Shown: one piece after another, positions 2,302 through 26,050 of the stretch
Numbering within the stretch: position 1 is the stretch's first letter
Layout of the letters: the number at the start of each line of letters is the position of its first letter
Assembly: GCA_030615855.1 (NCBI GenBank)
Contig: JAUWYL010000009.1
Location: 1 to 38,512 of the forward strand
Length of the DNA: 38,512 nt
Direction: 5' to 3'
Source: a bacterium
Lineage (GTDB): Bacteria; UBP18; UBA7526
Program-made: the position numbers and the translations under genes
The notes under the pieces: generated by a model
Databases searched by the model: none
What the model was told of the DNA's origin: nothing
What the model saw: the letters and a program-made list of their open reading frames with translations, nothing else

Positions 2302-2389
2302 GCATATCTCCAGAGATCTCTTTTATTTTCTTCCCTTCTACTATTCCATACTTTGCTCTATCTTCACCCAAAAATCTGGCATATCTCAT
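2282..2389 (-). pseudogene. 35-codon 5' fragment resembling the N-terminal (DUF2437-like) region of a fumarylacetoacetate-hydrolase-family protein
   Basis: ATG overlaps the dapB stop (ATGA). Translation MRYARFLGEDRAKYGIVEGKKIKEISGDMLGKFKR*; family assigned from recalled sequence pattern only. Confidence 0.55.
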
Positions 2390-3189
2390 TTAAGCTTAAG
2401 GACATCCTGCATATCGTAGAGGCCTTTCTTGGCTTTAACTATAAACTTTACTGCCCTCATGGCCCCCTGGGCAAAGGTATCCCTTGAATGGGCACGATGG
2501 GTAATCTCTATTCTCTCCCCGGTTCCGGCAAAGGTTATGGTATGTTCTCCCACGATGTCCCCAGCCCGGACAGCATGGATCCCGATCTCCTTCCTCGTTC
2601 TCTCGCCAGTCGCCCCCTTTCTTCCATAAACCCCGGCTTCTTTTAAGTTTCTTCCCAATGCCTTGGCTAAAATTTCTGCAATCCTAATGGCGGTTCCGGA
2701 AGGAGCATCCTTCTTCTTCCTGTGATGGGCCTCAACGATCTCAATATCGTAATCATCTCCTAAGACAGGGGCAATATCCTTTGCCAATTTGAATAAGAGG
2801 TTCACCCCCACGCTCATATTGGGAGCCATAACGCAAGGGATCTGGGTAGCGATCTCTTTAATCTCTTTCAGCTGCTCATCGCTGAAGCCAGTTGTTCCAA
2901 TGACCATGGCCTTGTTATGTTCAATGGCCATTCTTAGGTGATTTAAGGTGGTGTCTGGATCAGTGAACTCAATGAGCACTTCTCCTTCATCGATGATGTG
3001 CTCCAAGTCATCGCTTATCAGGACTCCTAATTTCCCCAATCCATTTACCTCTCCCGCATCCTTGCCGAAATTGGGATGGCCTTTCTTTTCCAAGGCACCA
3101 ACTAACTTAATCTCCTCATCATTCTTTATTGCTTTTATAATCCTGGCACCCATCCTTCCACAAGCACCGCTCACTATGGCTTTAATCAT
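2386..3189 (-). CDS. dapB: 4-hydroxy-tetrahydrodipicolinate reductase
   Basis: GACGRMG, GTTG and EAHHRKKKDAPSGTA motifs. Start moved to ATG 3189 behind AGGAGG. Confidence 0.95.
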   Translation of the reverse strand: MIKAIVSGACGRMGARIIKAIKNDEEIKLVGALEKKGHPNFGKDAGEVNGLGKLGVLISDDLEHIIDEGEVLIEFTDPDTTLNHLRMAIEHNKAMVIGTTGFSDEQLKEIKEIATQIPCVMAPNMSVGVNLLFKLAKDIAPVLGDDYDIEIVEAHHRKKKDAPSGTAIRIAEILAKALGRNLKEAGVYGRKGATGERTRKEIGIHAVRAGDIVGEHTITFAGTGERIEITHRAHSRDTFAQGAMRAVKFIVKAKKGLYDMQDVLKLK

Positions 3190-3202: not shown

Positions 3203-3260
3203 ACACGGATTTCTTTATTCTGCCTACTACTTGGGATTAAATACACGGATTATCGCGGAT
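3203..3260. repeat. CACGGAT-type repeat arm downstream of the GxxExxY gene
   Basis: acacggat at 3203 and 3243, cgcggat at 3254. Confidence 0.85.
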
Positions 3261-3626
3261 TTAACCAAGAATCCTTCGTCTAATATCCAATTTTTCAGCA
3301 CCAAAGTTTACCAAGAAGCCTAATTTATAATTGGTCCCTTTCAGATAGTAATATAGTTGCTTCTCATAGACCTTAGGCATTTCGGGTACTGCTTTGATCT
3401 CAATAAGAATTTTATCTTCGATTACAAAATCTGGAACATATCTTCCAATACTTTTACCCTTGTAAGAAATTGATAATTGTGGCTCCTCCTTGAAAGAAAG
3501 ATTTCTTAACGTGAACTCTTTCACTAAAGCACGATGATAAATGACTTCTTTAAATCCTGGCCCTAAAGTATTATAGACCTCAAAGAAGGCTCCCCGAATT
3601 TTGTAGGTTAATTTTTCATACAACAT
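3261..3626 (-). CDS. GxxExxY protein (PD-(D/E)xK nuclease superfamily)
   Basis: GPGFKEVIY motif; PDFVIEDKILIEIK catalytic-type motif; LVNFG. Confidence 0.9.
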   Translation of the reverse strand: MLYEKLTYKIRGAFFEVYNTLGPGFKEVIYHRALVKEFTLRNLSFKEEPQLSISYKGKSIGRYVPDFVIEDKILIEIKAVPEMPKVYEKQLYYYLKGTNYKLGFLVNFGAEKLDIRRRILG

Positions 3627-22363: not shown

Positions 22364-23260
22364 TTAACTCTTTTTCTCTTCCTTTGGAGTTTCCTTCGTC
22401 TCCTTGAACAATTCGCTTATGCCAGCTATGCTTCCCAGAACCCCGGTTGTCTCTAATGGCAGGAAAATCTTAGTCGCCTTGCCATCGGCAATCTTCTGCA
22501 AAGCCTCAAGGTACTTTATGGCAACTAAGTCATTGGTCGGTCTCCCCTTATGTATGGCTCCATAAACGTTTTCAATGGCTTGGGCCTCACCCTGAGCAAC
22601 GAGAATCTTAGCCTGTCGGCTGCCTTCTGCCCTCAGAATCTCGGCCTGCTTCTCACCGTCTGCTCTTAGGATAGCGGCCTGTTTTACTCCCTCAGCCTCC
22701 AGGATGACAGCTCGCTTTGTCCTCTCCGCCTTCATCTGTCTGCTCATGGCCTCAGTAATATCCTTAGGTGGATCGATCTTCTGAAGTTCGACCCGGGTGA
22801 CTTTAACCCCCCATTTATCCGTGGCTTCATCCAGCACCATGCGAAGTTGCTCATTTATTCGGTTACGTGAAGTCAGGGTCTGGTCAAGTTGCATCTCACC
22901 GATAACATTTCTCAGGTTGGTCTGGGCCAATTTTAAGGCAGCTAACTCAAAACGCGCTACATTATAGGTGACCTTGAAGGGATCGGTTATCTGGAAGTAA
23001 ATGACGGCATCTACGGTAACCAAAACATTATCCTTGGTGATTACATCCTGGGGCGGCACATCGATGACCCGTTCCCGCACATCCACCTTCCTGATGGTTT
23101 CTATCAAGGGGAAGATGAAGGCCAGTCCGGAATCCTCAGTGCGCACAAACTTACCCAGCCTCTCTACCAGACCCTTTTCAAAGGGACGGATGATCCGCAG
23201 GGCCTTGGTCCCAAAGATAATTACCAGGACAACCAAGCCAATAATTACTGGTCCTATCAT
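22364..23260 (-). CDS. SPFH/band-7 (QmcA/stomatin-like) membrane protein
   Basis: VERLGKF, QDVITKDNV, WGVKVTRVE and QMKAER motifs. Confidence 0.92.
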   Translation of the reverse strand: MIGPVIIGLVVLVIIFGTKALRIIRPFEKGLVERLGKFVRTEDSGLAFIFPLIETIRKVDVRERVIDVPPQDVITKDNVLVTVDAVIYFQITDPFKVTYNVARFELAALKLAQTNLRNVIGEMQLDQTLTSRNRINEQLRMVLDEATDKWGVKVTRVELQKIDPPKDITEAMSRQMKAERTKRAVILEAEGVKQAAILRADGEKQAEILRAEGSRQAKILVAQGEAQAIENVYGAIHKGRPTNDLVAIKYLEALQKIADGKATKIFLPLETTGVLGSIAGISELFKETKETPKEEKKS

Positions 23261-23279
23261 AATACTACCTCCTTTCTCT

Positions 23280-23717
23280 TCATTTTTGAACTACTAAGTG
23301 GGTTCCTTTTACCTCCCGTATCTTCACCTTTTCTCCCGCGGCGATCCTTTCCTTAGCTTCCGCACGCCACTTCTCACCTTCCACTATAACCATACCCATC
23401 TTCTCGGGTTCGATCGTCTCCACTACCTGAGCCTCTTTGCTCAGCAATGCGTCAATAGTGGTGCGCTTTGCCGAAACCTTTTTTTCCAACCTGCGAACTA
23501 AGGGGCGACTACCTAAAATTAAAAGCGCAGAAAGGATAACAAAGACCAGCCAGGAAACCCACCAGATTTCAGTGAAGAGGGTACTGATCCCGGCTAATAG
23601 GGCCCCCAATCCTAAGCAGACAAAGAAGAAGGTGCCTGGTGTCAAAATCTCGGCAATGATGAGAATTACACCGGCGGCAACCCAGTAAACCCAGGGATCA
23701 ATGGTAAAAGGATTCAT
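23280..23717 (-). CDS. NfeD-like (YbbJ-type) membrane protein
   Basis: AEILTPG, TM segments and a C-terminal GEKWRAE OB-fold; paired with the SPFH gene. Confidence 0.9.
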   Translation of the reverse strand: MNPFTIDPWVYWVAAGVILIIAEILTPGTFFFVCLGLGALLAGISTLFTEIWWVSWLVFVILSALLILGSRPLVRRLEKKVSAKRTTIDALLSKEAQVVETIEPEKMGMVIVEGEKWRAEAKERIAAGEKVKIREVKGTHLVVQK

Positions 23718-23760
23718 TTCCCTCCTCCATTATTTAGTATCTTCATTCTCTTATGCTAAA

Positions 23761-23789
23761 ACTCTACCACGACTATTCTATAAAGTCAA
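23761..23789 (-). promoter_or_regulatory. Putative promoter of nfeD-SPFH
   Basis: TTGACT-17nt-TAGAGT with a TG extension. Confidence 0.7.
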
Positions 23790-23830
23790 GTTTAATTTCT
23801 AACGTGATGCTACTTTATCATTCCCAAATG

Positions 23831-23864
23831 CCCGCTAAAGCGGGATTCTGGCTAAAGCCAGAAT
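23831..23864. repeat. Intergenic double-hairpin element
   Basis: cccgc-taaa-gcggg followed by attctggc-taaa-gccagaat. Confidence 0.7.
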
Positions 23865-23882
23865 AGCCCGGGAATGTGGGAA

Positions 23883-24039
23883 CAAGATATCCCCTTCGGG
23901 GATACTTCCATAGGGGTTTTACCCCTCTGGCGGTCGGCAAAGTCATACTTTGCCTCCCTGTCACCCCTTGGGGGAAAGCAGATTCTTTCCCCCAAACCCC
24001 CTAATCCTCAGCATCGGAGTTGTTGAAATTCCGATGCTT
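23883..24039 (-). repeat. 157-bp multi-hairpin repeat (candidate structured RNA), copy 3' of truA
   Basis: About 7 mismatches to 24897-25053; five hairpins. Confidence 0.9.
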
Positions 24040-24044
24040 TGAGA

Positions 24045-24878
24045 CTAATATCCTACTTTTATGAGATAAAGGCCTTTGGCAAGAGCAGTGGGACCGGCGA
24101 ATCTGCGATTGCGGGCCTTTATGATCTCTTTTACCTTAGAAGGACTGATCTTTCCCTTTCCCACCTCAATTAGAGTTCCCACAATGGTGCGCACCATTCC
24201 ATAGAGGAAGCCGTCGGCCTCAACGTTGATAAAAATGGCTCTGCCATTTTTTCGCATATCGCATATTGCATATCGCATATCGCTTTGAGAAGTTATGGAA
24301 AGTTTTGTGATGGTGCGGACTGGACTTCTAACACTAGAGCCTGAGAGTTGAAAAGAGGAGAAGTTATGCTTACCCATTAGATGCTTTGCTCCTTCTCTCA
24401 TGGCCTTTAGATTGAGTTTGTAGGGTCTCCGACCCAGAGGGGTCTCTGCCCCGGAGGGAATATAGAGGACATAATCCTTTAGGAATGGTGAAGGTGTGGA
24501 GTCCTGATAGATGACATATCTATAGTGCTTGCTCTTGGCATCGAATTGGGCGTGAAATCTTTCTTTTACTCGCTGAGCATTTTTGATAGCAATGTCTTTA
24601 GGAAACATACTGTTTAGGGCCTTTTTAAATTCCTCTGGGGTCATCTTGCTCTTTGTCCTGAAGTTTGCCACCTGACCTAAAGCATGAACCCCGGCATCCG
24701 TTCTCCCCGCCCCAATTACTTTAATCTTCTCCTCAGTGATTTTACTCAATGCTGCCTCTAAAACTCCCTGTATCGTCTTCTTCTGAAGCTTGGAGCCTGT
24801 AGCCTGAAGCCTCTCCTGTCTCTGCCACCCCCTATAATTCGTCCCTTCATATTCAATAACGAGTCTTATATTCTGCAT
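24045..24878 (-). CDS. truA: tRNA pseudouridine(38-40) synthase, with three repeat-derived insertions
   Basis: YEGTNYRGWQ, GAGRTDAGVHA and FLYGMVR motifs. Confidence 0.95.
   Translation of the reverse strand: MQNIRLVIEYEGTNYRGWQRQERLQATGSKLQKKTIQGVLEAALSKITEEKIKVIGAGRTDAGVHALGQVANFRTKSKMTPEEFKKALNSMFPKDIAIKNAQRVKERFHAQFDAKSKHYRYVIYQDSTPSPFLKDYVLYIPSGAETPLGRRPYKLNLKAMREGAKHLMGKHNFSSFQLSGSSVRSPVRTITKLSITSQSDMRYAICDMRKNGRAIFINVEADGFLYGMVRTIVGTLIEVGKGKISPSKVKEIIKARNRRFAGPTALAKGLYLIKVGY
24422..24458. repeat. 33-bp palindromic element inside truA (opposite orientation to the dapA and argJ copies)
   Basis: AGGG direct repeats 33 bp apart; removal restores IPYK. Confidence 0.85.
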
Positions 24879-24896
24879 TAATTTGCCCCACTACAC

Positions 24897-25053
24897 CAAG
24901 ATATCCCCTTCGGGGATACTTCCATAGGGGTTTTACCCCTCTGGCGGTCGGCAAAGTCATACTTTGCCTCCCTGTCACCCCCTGGGGGCAAGCAGATTCT
25001 TTCCCCCAGACCCCCTAATCCTCAGCATCGGAATTATTACAATTCCGATGCTT
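24897..25053 (-). repeat. 157-bp multi-hairpin repeat, copy 5' of truA
   Basis: Direct repeat of 23883-24039. Confidence 0.9.
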
Positions 25054-25059
25054 CAAATT

Positions 25060-25088
25060 ATATTATCACAAATCCCTCTTTTCGTCAA
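25060..25088 (-). promoter_or_regulatory. Putative promoter of the repeat-truA transcript
   Basis: TTGACG-17nt-TAATAT with a TG extension. Confidence 0.7.
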
Positions 25089-25089
25089 A

Positions 25090-25139
25090 CCCCATTAGAA
25101 AGCTCTTGTCATGAATTACGTTAGAACTTTCTAACGGGA
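25090..25139. mobile_element. Short degenerate MITE-like element
   Basis: CCCCATTAGAAAG...CTTTCTAACGGGA inverted ends; flanks CAAA/TAAA. Confidence 0.55.
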
Positions 25140-25142
25140 TAA

Positions 25143-25178
25143 ACAAAAAGCCCCCGATTTATCTAGGGGCTATTTTGT
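25143..25178 (-). terminator. Intrinsic terminator of the DUF2089 operon
   Basis: AGCCCC...GGGGCT hairpin followed by TTTTG on the minus strand. Confidence 0.7.
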
Positions 25179-25255
25179 CTTTGTTAAGAAATCTTTTTAT
25201 CTATCTTTTTTTTGTAATTTTATTTTGGCTAAGGAAATCCTTTTTATATAACTGG

Positions 25256-26050
25256 TTATTTTAGTTTTTTGAGTTGTTCTCGGGCCTTAGTGGCCCAGGT
25301 GGTTTTGGGATATTCTTTTATTAGTTTCTCATATTCTTTTATTGCCCGAGGATACATCTTGTTAAATTGGTAATTCTCTCCCAGGGTATAGAGGGCCTTT
25401 GCCTTTTCCTCGGAGGTTAATGGAATTTTCTTTTCCAGTTTTTTGAGGGATTTTGCTGCTGATTCTCTCGTATAGTAACGGTTTCTACCCGTTCGTTTAT
25501 CATAATAATACTTTGGGTCTTTTAGGGCTTTTTTTAATACTGGTATCGCTCTTGTGTCTCCTAATTTACCTAATGCTTCAGCAGTAACCCTGCGGACAAC
25601 CTCATTCTCATCACTCATTGCCTTAATTAGTGGTTCTACTGCCCCTTCATCCTTTATGACACCTAAGGCTTTAGCCGCTTCCCAGCGACGGGTAAAAGGA
25701 TTACTTTGATCCTGAAGGGCCTCGATTAGTGCTGGAACAGCAGGCTTTCCAATTTTAATCAATACATTCAATGCTTTAAACTGATCTCCTGTTCCAAGCT
25801 GGGAGATTTCTCTATCTATCTTCCTTTGCAATTTTACCTTGGGCAAATGAACAGCTAATAATCCCCCAATGATGACTAAGGCAATTACCGTTATCAAAAT
25901 GCTAACAATCTTCGTCTTGGGTTTCCTGACTCTCCTTTCTTTCTCTGTAGCAGCTGATTCATCTAATGCCTTTAGCAATTTCTCACTCTGCTCTTTAGTG
26001 ATCTTCCCTTCCCTTAGCATCCTCTCTATCCTCTCTCTTTCCTTTTCCAT
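25256..26050 (-). CDS. Membrane-anchored protein: SHOCT-like N-terminus, TM helix, HEAT/PBS repeats, C-terminal TPR
   Basis: IERMLREGKITKEQ; AVPALIEAL and AVEPLIKAM repeats; LIKEYPKT. Confidence 0.8.
   Translation of the reverse strand: MEKERERIERMLREGKITKEQSEKLLKALDESAATEKERRVRKPKTKIVSILITVIALVIIGGLLAVHLPKVKLQRKIDREISQLGTGDQFKALNVLIKIGKPAVPALIEALQDQSNPFTRRWEAAKALGVIKDEGAVEPLIKAMSDENEVVRRVTAEALGKLGDTRAIPVLKKALKDPKYYYDKRTGRNRYYTRESAAKSLKKLEKKIPLTSEEKAKALYTLGENYQFNKMYPRAIKEYEKLIKEYPKTTWATKAREQLKKLK

Follow-up and report, generated by a model that had tools for sequence, protein, structure and literature searches.

Why a gene for a tRNA pseudouridine synthase, truA, should be enclosed by two nearly identical and elaborately structured repeats is the question raised by a stretch of 38,512 nucleotides (the window, by which we mean this whole stretch: contig JAUWYL010000009.1 of assembly GCA_030615855.1, positions 1 to 38,512) from a bacterium of the GTDB lineage UBP18, UBA7526. 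The initial annotation of this locus proposed an unannotated structured RNA or non-autonomous element, and raised the possibilities that it regulates truA or serves as a substrate of the enzyme and that the repeats allow the gene to be excised or amplified. Our results suggest that both repeats are quite probably copies of a gene-less, non-autonomous mobile element, 157 nt long here and 120-250 nt elsewhere, and not an RNA specific to truA. The proposal of an unannotated, structured, and non-autonomous element was supported by the absence of an Rfam match, by strong covariation in the helices, and by dispersed copies, whereas the truA-specific reading was not supported: the element has nothing specific to do with truA.

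A repeat search of positions 23000-26000 returned a single direct-repeat family with two members of 157 nt, at 23883-24039 and 24897-25053, which are 96% identical and start 1014 nt apart. Counted on the alignment they differ at seven positions, and thus 150 of the 157 nucleotides match, as had been stated for these repeats at both ends of truA. The features needed to follow the locus are:

23883..24039, minus strand: element copy a, 157 nt, beginning AAGCATCGG and ending GGGGATATCTTG, 5 nt past the truA stop codon and upstream of an NfeD-like gene
24045..24878, minus strand: truA, tRNA pseudouridine synthase, 277 amino acids (PF01416, E 7.5e-46)
24897..25053, minus strand: element copy b, 157 nt, between the promoter-like -10 and the ribosome-binding region of truA
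25060..25088, minus strand: sigma-70-like promoter (TTGACG, 17 nt, TAATAT, with TG ahead of the -10), a consensus match only

With respect to truA transcription, copy b (25053 down to 24897) is on the upstream side, 18 nt ahead of the ATG, and copy a (24039 down to 23883) is on the downstream side, where 5 nt separate it from the TAG stop codon (24047-24045), exactly as had been described. The placement of the other copy 6-7 nt past a -10 box also proved correct, since the TAATAT hexamer, which is -10-like by consensus match only, ends at 25060 on the minus strand, 6 nt ahead of copy b. A promoter scan gave five promoter-like sites compared with 2.5 +/- 1.7 in shuffled sequences, and the truA promoter match is therefore weak alone; the same sequence is conserved ahead of truA in a relative (G001), which indicates that it is the native truA promoter, now upstream of copy b. 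When the folding of copy a was compared with that of shuffled sequences, z-scores of -7.17 and -6.23 were obtained for the two strands, with none of 200 dinucleotide shuffles as stable, and the five stems reported for each repeat were all present in the computed folds.

The element was not confined to this locus. In the window's own genome (G000; 1.375 Mb on 45 contigs, 44% G+C), a DNA search found seven copies on six contigs that were 78-100% identical, and a covariance model built from them found the same seven full copies again and no others, with matches of 193.6 bits for copy a (23881-24045) and 200 bits for copy b (24895-25059). When 60 other genomes were searched with this model, all five genomes of the same family gave matches (12, 10, 20, 1, and 2), compared with one of the 55 unrelated genomes (G012, with two weak matches).

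Comparison with the relatives showed that both truA sites also exist without the element. The truA orthologues of G001, G002, and G003 have 73-86% identity; neither side of truA carries a copy in G002 and G003, and both sites adjacent to the intact truA of G001 are empty as well. Thus, the 3' site, filled by copy a in the window, is empty in all three relatives, and the insertion behind truA was seen only in the window. The single copy in the truA region of G001 is located 0.95 kb upstream, within a duplication of the truA promoter, the leader, and the first 33 nt of the gene, and its junctions are exactly those in the window, which suggests that the insertion at the truA promoter is shared in some form by two species of the genus. 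This duplication may have arisen by recombination with a filled allele or may be a chimera in the assembly of a metagenome-assembled genome (MAG). The duplicated fragments (L040 on contig C8 of G001, 3240-3490 versus 2330-2400, minus strand) are about 0.9 kb apart, with an open reading frame (ORF) of 160 amino acids and a terminator-like hairpin between them, and the two leaders differ considerably.

Empty alleles were also found in public sequencing runs. A contig from run X2 joins 23882 to 24044, skipping 161 nt, and thus represents an empty truA 3' site, and an empty 5' site is represented by contigs from both X2 and X3, in which 24893 is joined to 25060 and 166 nt are absent. The depth of the element was 10-50 times that of its flanks in these public runs, which suggests that the family is abundant in those communities. 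When the flanks of 21 copies from relatives were compared with G000, four sites were empty in G000, namely those of L024, L034, and L035 and one site used both by L037 of G001 and by L025 of G003, which belongs to another genus. The copy L029 was orthologous to the G000 copy on contig C30. At the sites of L018, L031, and L038, G000 carries a different element that shares the left end AAGYATCGGAAYTT and has an interior of heptamer repeats, and the G000 element on C41, at the L018 site, shares the right end ..ATATCTTG too. At least 12 further sites in G000 bear the left end AAGYATCGGAAYTT. These shared left ends suggest that the 157-nt type is one subfamily of the intergenic hairpin cassettes of this genome.

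Members of this cassette superfamily with the left end ARGYATCGGAAYTT are located in G000 at C41:14708, C18:15500, C44:58185, C7:11869, C20:30446, C36:11090, and C43:31256, and short forms at C10:4388, C25:1224, C33:16735, and C36:9047. Most of the superfamily cassettes share the right end (GAGGC)YTATCTTG. The interiors of the cassettes are made of long heptamer-repeat hairpins or of a single small hairpin; three cassettes are located at sites where G001 or G002 carry the 157-nt core type.

These comparisons bear directly on the idea that the repeats are a cis-acting or substrate RNA dedicated to truA, for example in autoregulation, or that they serve to excise or amplify the gene, which we regard as highly improbable. 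Such a role would account for the exact bracketing of truA, with one copy at the predicted start of transcription and the other 5 nt past the stop codon, and for the fact that the two copies are each other's closest relatives (96% identity, versus at most 93% to other copies). However, the other five of the seven copies in the genome are full copies at unrelated loci, the 45 covariance-model matches in the five related genomes speak against dedication to truA, and all of the relatives' copies that were examined adjoin unrelated genes, with the exception of the promoter-fragment copy of G001. Furthermore, the TruA protein is conserved regardless, also in G002 and G003, where truA has no copies, and empty alleles of both sites are present in metagenome contigs. 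Copies scattered over the genome, which the initial annotation itself had named as evidence against its reading, are therefore what the genome-wide count revealed. As for excision or amplification, no joint that deletes truA was present among those listed for the four runs, which is weak evidence since only contigs were covered. That an assembly artefact placed a collapsed or chimeric repeat on both sides of truA is barely conceivable. It is true that short-read unitigs break within the repeat and that the G001 MAG has its odd duplicated promoter fragment. In contrast, the unitigs of run X1, possibly the source sample, span all of the junctions, running from the flank into copy a, from copy a through truA into copy b, and from copy b into the other flank without differences, and one of them, 938 nt long, extends from inside copy a through truA into copy b, also without differences. 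Unitigs of X4, a run from another study, cross two junctions, from the flank into copy a and from truA into copy b. The unitigs of both runs thus support the filled junctions.

The anatomy of the element is best described on the strand co-oriented with truA. It starts with AAGCATCGG, followed by P1, a hairpin of 12 bp, an unpaired GAGGAUUAGGGGGU, P2 (UUUGGGGGAAAG..CUUUCCCCCAA), an unpaired GGGGUGACAG, P3, a hairpin in place of which three unrelated hairpins occur among the seven copies, P4 (CGCCAGAGGGG, loop, CCCCUAUGG) with a conserved G-A mismatch, and P5 (AAGUAUCCCC GAA GGGGAUAUCUU) with a final G. Hairpin 3 and the end hairpins are swappable modules around a middle that is conserved across phyla, the landmarks of which in the window are:

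23958..23967 in copy a and 24972-24981 in copy b, minus strand: core motif GGGGTGACAG, invariant in all seven copies and part of the cross-phylum pattern
23905..23932 in copy a and 24919-24946 in copy b, minus strand: core hairpin P4 (CGCCAGAGGGG, loop, CCCCTATGGAAG)

The covariation check strengthened the structural part of the earlier proposal, both with the seven copies of the genome and with the 31 distinct rows of the family. Compensatory changes were found in 10 of the 49 pairs among the seven copies. In the 31 rows, which were aligned by fitting to the model, a procedure that flatters the structure, 97.7% of the cells pair and 22 of the 49 pairs have changed on both sides; none of 500 shuffles was as good, and structures slid along the alignment were 35-58% paired. 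Cells with G-U (28) outnumbered those with A-C (11), and one U-G pair was kept in 26 rows, which indicates that it is the truA-co-oriented strand that folds, as RNA or as single-stranded DNA. Two layouts were rejected. A pseudoknot between the unpaired G-runs and C-runs or the P2 loop (UAGGGG/CCCCUA) is partial and was not kept in other subfamilies, and a hammerhead layout (CUGANGA/GAAA), compared by eye, is contradicted by copies with CCGAGGA, which break its core, and by position 17, which would be G. In three copies of G003 (L025, L030, and L036) the variable middle of the element, where P3 is located, reads as runs of N.

The folded strand was mostly that of the neighboring genes. A heuristic ORF table of 28 copies listed 23 with only co-oriented nearest ORFs (among them L028, for which the flanking ORF is spurious and runs across a tRNA gene), three with one co-oriented and one opposite ORF, one opposite to both neighbors, and two orthologous copies antisense inside a gene. 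This bias is one relative to gene direction; the complete genomes held only 2-3 pattern matches each, too few to compare orientation with the direction of replication. The element is often inserted in the short interval that separates a stop codon from the ribosome-binding site of the following gene, and six copies end 13-17 nt before the next start codon, or 4 nt inside it, just upstream of the ribosome-binding site. This co-orientation suggests that the element is carried inside host transcripts.

The boundaries of the element are precise, and how it moves may be read from its ends. A 3' end of CTTG was found in 26 of 27 copies, and the left-flank tetranucleotide was TTTG in 11 and CTTG in 4 of 26, such that 15 of 26 copies stand directly 3' of one of these words. 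Copies with another left flank (TCA in the case of L024 and of the truA 3' site, CTG for L028 in its remnant of a tRNA D-loop) have kept TTG at the right end, and the empty counterparts of these sites contain nothing but the left version, which is TCA for L024 and for the truA 3' site. Since the right TTG is constant whatever the left flank, the terminal TTG belongs to the element itself and is not a target duplication. No terminal inverted repeats were found on comparing the ends (AAGCATCGG... versus ...GGGGATATCTTG), which have at most an imperfect AAG(A)TATC similarity, and the two end hairpins differ from each other. The ends of the relatives in Holophagaceae follow CTAG or TAG in the left flank and close on ..GTGCACTAG:

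Holophagaceae-type end pair: CTAG, then TGGTGCCC at the left end of the element ... GTGCACTAG at its right end

A classical miniature inverted-repeat transposable element, i.e., a deletion derivative of an insertion sequence (IS) with a DDE transposase, was rejected, because terminal inverted repeats are lacking and because there is no target duplication of fixed length, the right TTG being constant and the left flank being TCA, CTG, TGG, GAG, or similar in 11 of 26 copies.

The lack of a duplication, the hairpin at each end, and the insertion 3' of a word that is repeated by the element's own 3' end together follow a rule of the HUH type. By analogy, we tentatively propose that the element may move like IS91 or IS200-type elements, by HUH single-strand or rolling-circle transposition, a possibility that we favor to a limited degree. 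A transposase provided in trans would cut after the tetranucleotide beside the subterminal hairpin at both ends, and the target would resemble the element's own 3' end. An account of the IS91 family describes elements without target duplication that insert at 5'-CTTG (IS91) or 5'-GTTC (IS801, IS1294), beside oriIS, and whose terIS is marked by a subterminal palindrome and a tetranucleotide; end fragments of 82-89 bp are enough for transposition in trans, during which single- and double-stranded circles arise (PMC13181058). Judged by this account, our element and the IS91 family with its mini-IS (HUH Y2 rolling-circle elements such as IS91, IS801, and IS1294) both lack target duplications and terminal inverted repeats, both insert beside a tetranucleotide, and both carry an imperfect palindrome close to each end, the far end being closed by a tetranucleotide. 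The CTTG found here and the GTTC found in tRNA-linked T-loops (see below) are the two target words given there for IS91 elements, and the end features described for mini-IS are present in our element, with a partial tetranucleotide preference (15/26). In contrast, IS91 ends do not contain a conserved structured core like the one of about 90 nt seen here, and the ends of an IS91 copy that was inspected in a Holophagaceae genome are unrelated to those of the element.

Other small repeats offer partial parallels. The palindrome-associated transposable elements (PATEs) of the IS200/IS605 group and the repetitive extragenic palindromes (REPs and REPINs) with their RAYT transposases are strand-specific, have hairpins at both ends, cause no target duplication, and insert 3' of a short word resembling their own 3' cleavage site; they are multi-copy, intergenic, and often located inside operons. 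The element shares with them strand-specificity, end hairpins, lack of duplication, and insertion 3' of a word, and its copies, too, are multiple, intergenic, and often within operons, but it is much longer and more structured than REPs and has no GTAG-type REP head, and no Y1/RAYT gene was found in G000-G003. The Rickettsia palindromic elements (RPEs) and the Correia elements of Neisseria are small hairpin-rich repeats that can be in frame within genes and are co-transcribed with their neighbors, and Correia elements have terminal inverted repeats and a TA duplication. Our element is likewise small and hairpin-rich, with one copy in frame (on C30), whereas it has no sequence relation to either of them, lacks the terminal inverted repeats and TA duplication of Correia elements, and is found in many phyla. 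Finally, the tyrT repeats of E. coli give rise to RtT RNA (Rfam RF00391). Relatives of our element in Omnitrophota and Planctomycetota follow tRNA or tmRNA genes, close on a repeat of the tRNA 3' end, and are sometimes in tandem, which resembles the tyrT repeats and the accretion of cis-mobilizable elements (CIMEs) at tRNA 3' ends; however, cmscan gave no match to RtT, the copies in the window have no tRNA-derived sequence, and no integrase is nearby.

Several observations weigh against the mobile-element reading or its HUH-type mechanism. The left-flank preference is loose, with 11 of 26 copies having neither TTTG nor CTTG, and the junction at the truA 3' site is not perfectly clean, since the filled copy differs from the empty alleles by 1-2 extra bases. 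The excess of G-U and the co-orientation with genes could reflect selection at the RNA level instead of a single-strand DNA step; moreover, the orientation table is a simple ORF heuristic in which orthologous copies are not independent, and transcription is inferred from position only. Nor was a matching enzyme found in the genomes that carry this subfamily. The Y1 transposase (PF01797) was found in none of the four family genomes tested (G000-G003), although it is present in G012; the Y2/IS91 transposase (PF04986) was found in none of the six family genomes, which is a weak negative since none of 14 control genomes gave a match either; IS110 (PF01548) was represented by one fragment in G003 and by nothing in the other five family genomes; and searches of the family genomes for TnpB above the cut-off and of all six for a reverse transcriptase were negative. 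The family genomes are MAGs that are 53-94% complete, and such assemblies often lose IS copies, and therefore the absence of an enzyme from them is weak evidence. Five other genomes that hold the element contain Y1 (three genomes) or Y2 (the other two), but the transposase loci inspected in those genomes have unrelated ends. Three other systems were rejected. The units with a GIY-YIG gene (C30:56.6 kb and C35:39.3 kb) are bounded by inverted repeats of the CCCCGCCCCC/GGGGGCGGGG type, and their ends are unrelated; an IS110-type system with a bridge RNA lacks a DEDD recombinase gene beyond the G003 fragment in the six family genomes; and an integron cassette with attC does not fit copies that are single and dispersed, a housekeeping truA in conserved synteny, and a genome with one tyrosine recombinase only.

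The core of the element extends far beyond this family. The two weak matches in G012 keep only AAGGGGTGACAG, a hairpin, and ACGCCAGAGGGGC..GCCCCTATGGAA. When one genome per GTDB species was scanned for GGGGTGACAG followed, after 12 to 42 nucleotides of any kind, by CGCCAGAGGGG, at least 118 stretches with the core GGGGUGACAG-hairpin-CGCCAGAGGGG..CCCCnAUGG matched the pattern, compared with an estimate of about 8 chance matches under uniform base composition. The 80 loci that were fetched gave 70 distinct sequences with enough flank, 57 of which passed simple filters for P2 and the 3' strand of P4; among the 13 that failed, two (L077 and L126) look like chance matches and the others are variants with insertions or truncations. 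For an alignment of 61 rows we used 51 of these 57, nine copies of the window's family, and one sequence from G012, leaving out L084, L086, L088, L095, and L128, which have an insertion in P2, and L111, which is nearly identical to L071. Although CCCCnATGG was outside the search pattern, its columns are invariant or at least 90% conserved in the 61 sequences. The P2 hairpin is present in all 61. P3 has 55 distinct sequences among the 61, of which 52 fold into a hairpin of at least 4 bp, and the bases flanking it covary (CG 32, GC 11, UA 11).

According to their record titles, the core loci come from orders of Planctomycetota, from Holophagaceae/Geothrix and other Acidobacteriota, Omnitrophota, Patescibacteria, and Elusimicrobia, and further from Rokubacteria, Clostridia, Marinamargulisbacteria, and UBP18. 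Copies in Clostridia and in one Planctomycetales MAG are of the same five-hairpin type as those in the window, with ..TATCTTG ends and TATCTTG-like left flanks. In one Geothrix genome there were 16 pattern matches of a few nearly identical subtypes, which suggests recent spread. Many of the core copies are located behind tRNA genes. In Omnitrophota, Planctomycetota, and Patescibacteria the gene ahead of the element is that of an intact tRNA or tmRNA; the 5' arm of the element matches the T-arm in reverse complement, often except for two mismatches at the center, its end is a copy of the 3' part of the tRNA, and at several of these loci an extra hairpin directly follows the GTTC of the T-loop copy. 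A guide-like complementarity was rejected as a general feature, since the copies in the window have no such arm complementary to a T-arm. In Holophagaceae/Geothrix (L084, L086, L087, L088, L095, and L128), some copies have a structured insert of about 70 nt (..GAGGCTCCAGG..GCGTGCGATACCTGGAGG..) in the P2 loop, and copies of the same group have another insert after CCCCGATG, which suggests that the element family accepts nested modules. At L170, in a record of Velamenicoccus archaeovorus, positions ~1680-1800 of the minus strand hold 15 nt copied from the 5' end of tRNA-Val (GGGCGCGTAGCTCAG) and, behind them, unrelated hairpins; this fragment is about 110 nt upstream of an intact tRNA-Val, behind which the element ends early, after CGCCAGAGGGG.

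No catalogued family accounted for this core. An Rfam 15 scan of positions 23500-25500 of the window at E<=1 returned only SNORD75 (22.6 bits versus a gathering threshold of 50) and Betaproteobacteria-1 (21.1 versus 49.4), both of them noise, so that no family matched there, and a scan of 20 loci from other phyla gave nothing over the core and only the neighboring tRNA, tmRNA, and a group I intron. The core pattern had no match in 2.9 million viral contigs, blastn with the element found none in plasmid or phage collections, and a literature search found no paper that describes it. The element family is thus uncatalogued in Rfam 15, without a describing paper that we could find, and unusually widespread. 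What is new here is that a shared core ties the five-hairpin, in-frame, and tRNA-tailed forms together, along with the rule for ends and targets.

Three other accounts of how the element persists or spreads have to be weighed against HUH-type transposition. It could be a miniature integrative element, CIME-like or exploiting Xer, that is moved by a tyrosine integrase or by the host Xer, with a circle recombining through its joined ends (..TATCTTG|AAGCAT..) with look-alike sites and, in other phyla, with the 3' part of a tRNA; we consider this unlikely. It would explain why targets resemble the hypothetical circle junction (the empty truA 5' site of G001 reads ATATATTG^AGTATT, compared with ATATCTTG|AGGTAT or AAGCAT), why 17-22 nt of the 3' end of a tRNA or tmRNA are repeated after the element in Omnitrophota and Planctomycetota, which is the classic signature of attL/attR, and why sites are reused, as at the one site of L037 (G001) and L025 (G003) and at three G000 sites that hold a different subfamily member. 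Furthermore, every family genome has a tyrosine recombinase, and G000 has exactly one. However, this sole recombinase of G000 (295 amino acids) looks like a housekeeping Xer and is about 140 kb from the nearest copy, on a different contig from the window, and no integrase adjoins any copy examined; the only serine recombinase of the family genomes, a protein of 548 amino acids in G000, is not linkable to the element. In young copies the left flank resembles the right end imperfectly, insertions are found at poorly matching sites such as TTTTCA^AAG and TAGTCA^TTC, recombination between double-stranded molecules would not predict the strand-asymmetric folding signal, and neither viral contigs, searched with the core pattern, nor phage or plasmid records, searched with the element, gave a match.

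The strict conservation of the core invites two further explanations. In one, the core would be a functional RNA module, either a new self-cleaving ribozyme or the site of a universal RNA-handling protein, and the element would persist through a role in transcripts, for example in processing or stabilizing mRNAs and tRNA precursors. Such a module, which we hold to be improbable, would account for the approximately 30 nt of junctions and internal loop that are invariant across phyla while the surrounding helices covary freely, with 55 distinct P3 among 61 sequences, a conservation pattern of ribozymes and protein-binding RNAs, and it would agree with the nearly constant co-orientation of copies with flanking genes or an upstream tRNA and with the finding of no transposase in the family. 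The excess of G-U over A-C cells and the conserved U-G pair would also fit, but a G-rich strand gives more G-U pairs by composition alone, and thus this measure is not independent. On the other hand, copies differ in their presence between sister genomes and within one population, which speaks against an essential role for the host; one copy is part of a gene and is translated there on the opposite strand; the step from RNA to DNA would need a reverse transcriptase, and none was found in the six genomes; and no Rfam family matches. In the other explanation, which we consider quite doubtful, the core (the G-run, P2, GGGGUGACAG, P3, and CGCCAGAGGGG..CCCCnAUGG) would be the active part of a new class of protein-less mobile elements, as a catalytic RNA or a folded single-strand DNA module that processes itself from transcripts or recruits a universal host enzyme. 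An element of about 150 nt would then spread through at least eight bacterial phyla without a transposase of its own, and this one element would include among its forms the copies at truA, those in frame within genes, and the tRNA-tailed ones.

Under the preferred reading, that of a non-autonomous mobile element, the insertions on the two sides of truA would be independent events or the result of a local hop. Copy b separates the native promoter from the ribosome-binding region and would give the truA mRNA a 5' leader of 157 nt with five hairpins, and copy a would place the same structure at the 3' side of truA, ahead of the NfeD-like gene. The neighbors on either side of this arrangement have the orientation of truA:

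23280..23717, minus strand: NfeD-like gene, 145 amino acids, downstream (PF01957, E 3e-12)
25256..26050, minus strand: gene for a HEAT/TPR repeat protein, 264 amino acids, upstream

A hairpin with a U-run behind it is lacking on both strands of the element, and read-through is therefore likely. The insertions probably leave truA unaffected or alter the stability or translation of its mRNA only modestly. Seen from truA, a housekeeping gene that a selfish repeat has come to flank on both sides, there is nothing unusual in this arrangement. The wider interest lies in the element. Its highly structured core has the same unpaired nucleotides in Planctomycetota, Acidobacteriota, Omnitrophota, Patescibacteria, Clostridia, and the candidate phylum to which this genome belongs; the element continues to move, both among sister species and inside a sediment population; and the transcripts, and even the proteins, of very small genomes are remodeled by it. 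If it is moved by an HUH enzyme, it would be a widespread non-autonomous element of the IS91/IS200 type with an unusually elaborate scaffold; if no enzyme is found, it would be a candidate for a new ribozyme or for a new way of hijacking host enzymes.

The remodeling of a protein is illustrated by the G000 copy on C30, which is located inside an ORF of 785 amino acids for a Wzy_C/TPR protein. The Wzy_C match there is spread over 248 residues for a profile of 149 positions, whereas in G001, G003, and G005 the orthologue is one uninterrupted frame that lacks residues ~265-336; the insertion is common to G000 and G002. The copy is translated on the opposite strand of the element and adds about 57 residues within the Wzy_C domain of this membrane protein, which fits a tolerated loop, like those of RPEs, and not an intron.

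Other small repeats and insertions were observed around the element. Between copy a and the NfeD-like gene, at 23822-23870 of the window, there are two small hairpins (CCCGC-TAAA-GCGGG and ATTCTGGC-TAAA-GCCAGAAT) that are kept at the empty locus of G002, which suggests that they belong to a different and older layer of repeats. At L028 (contig C60 of G001, 1483-1880), an outer tRNA-like gene (GCCGCCA...TGGCGGCACCA) is broken twice, once by the element in its D-loop and once by an insert with an intact tRNA-Glu(UUC) between inverted repeats (CCCCGAGGTGCGCTAAA); the counterpart in G000 is a plain tRNA-Glu(UUC) at C2:51300-51400. From its sequence, the insert looks like a replacement tRNA brought by another small element. 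Within the coding sequence of truA, positions 24247-24285 of the window hold a run of GCATATC/GCATATT heptamers, and near it an X2 contig has an indel of 39 nt (24419-24459); the truA of G002 is 10 residues shorter.

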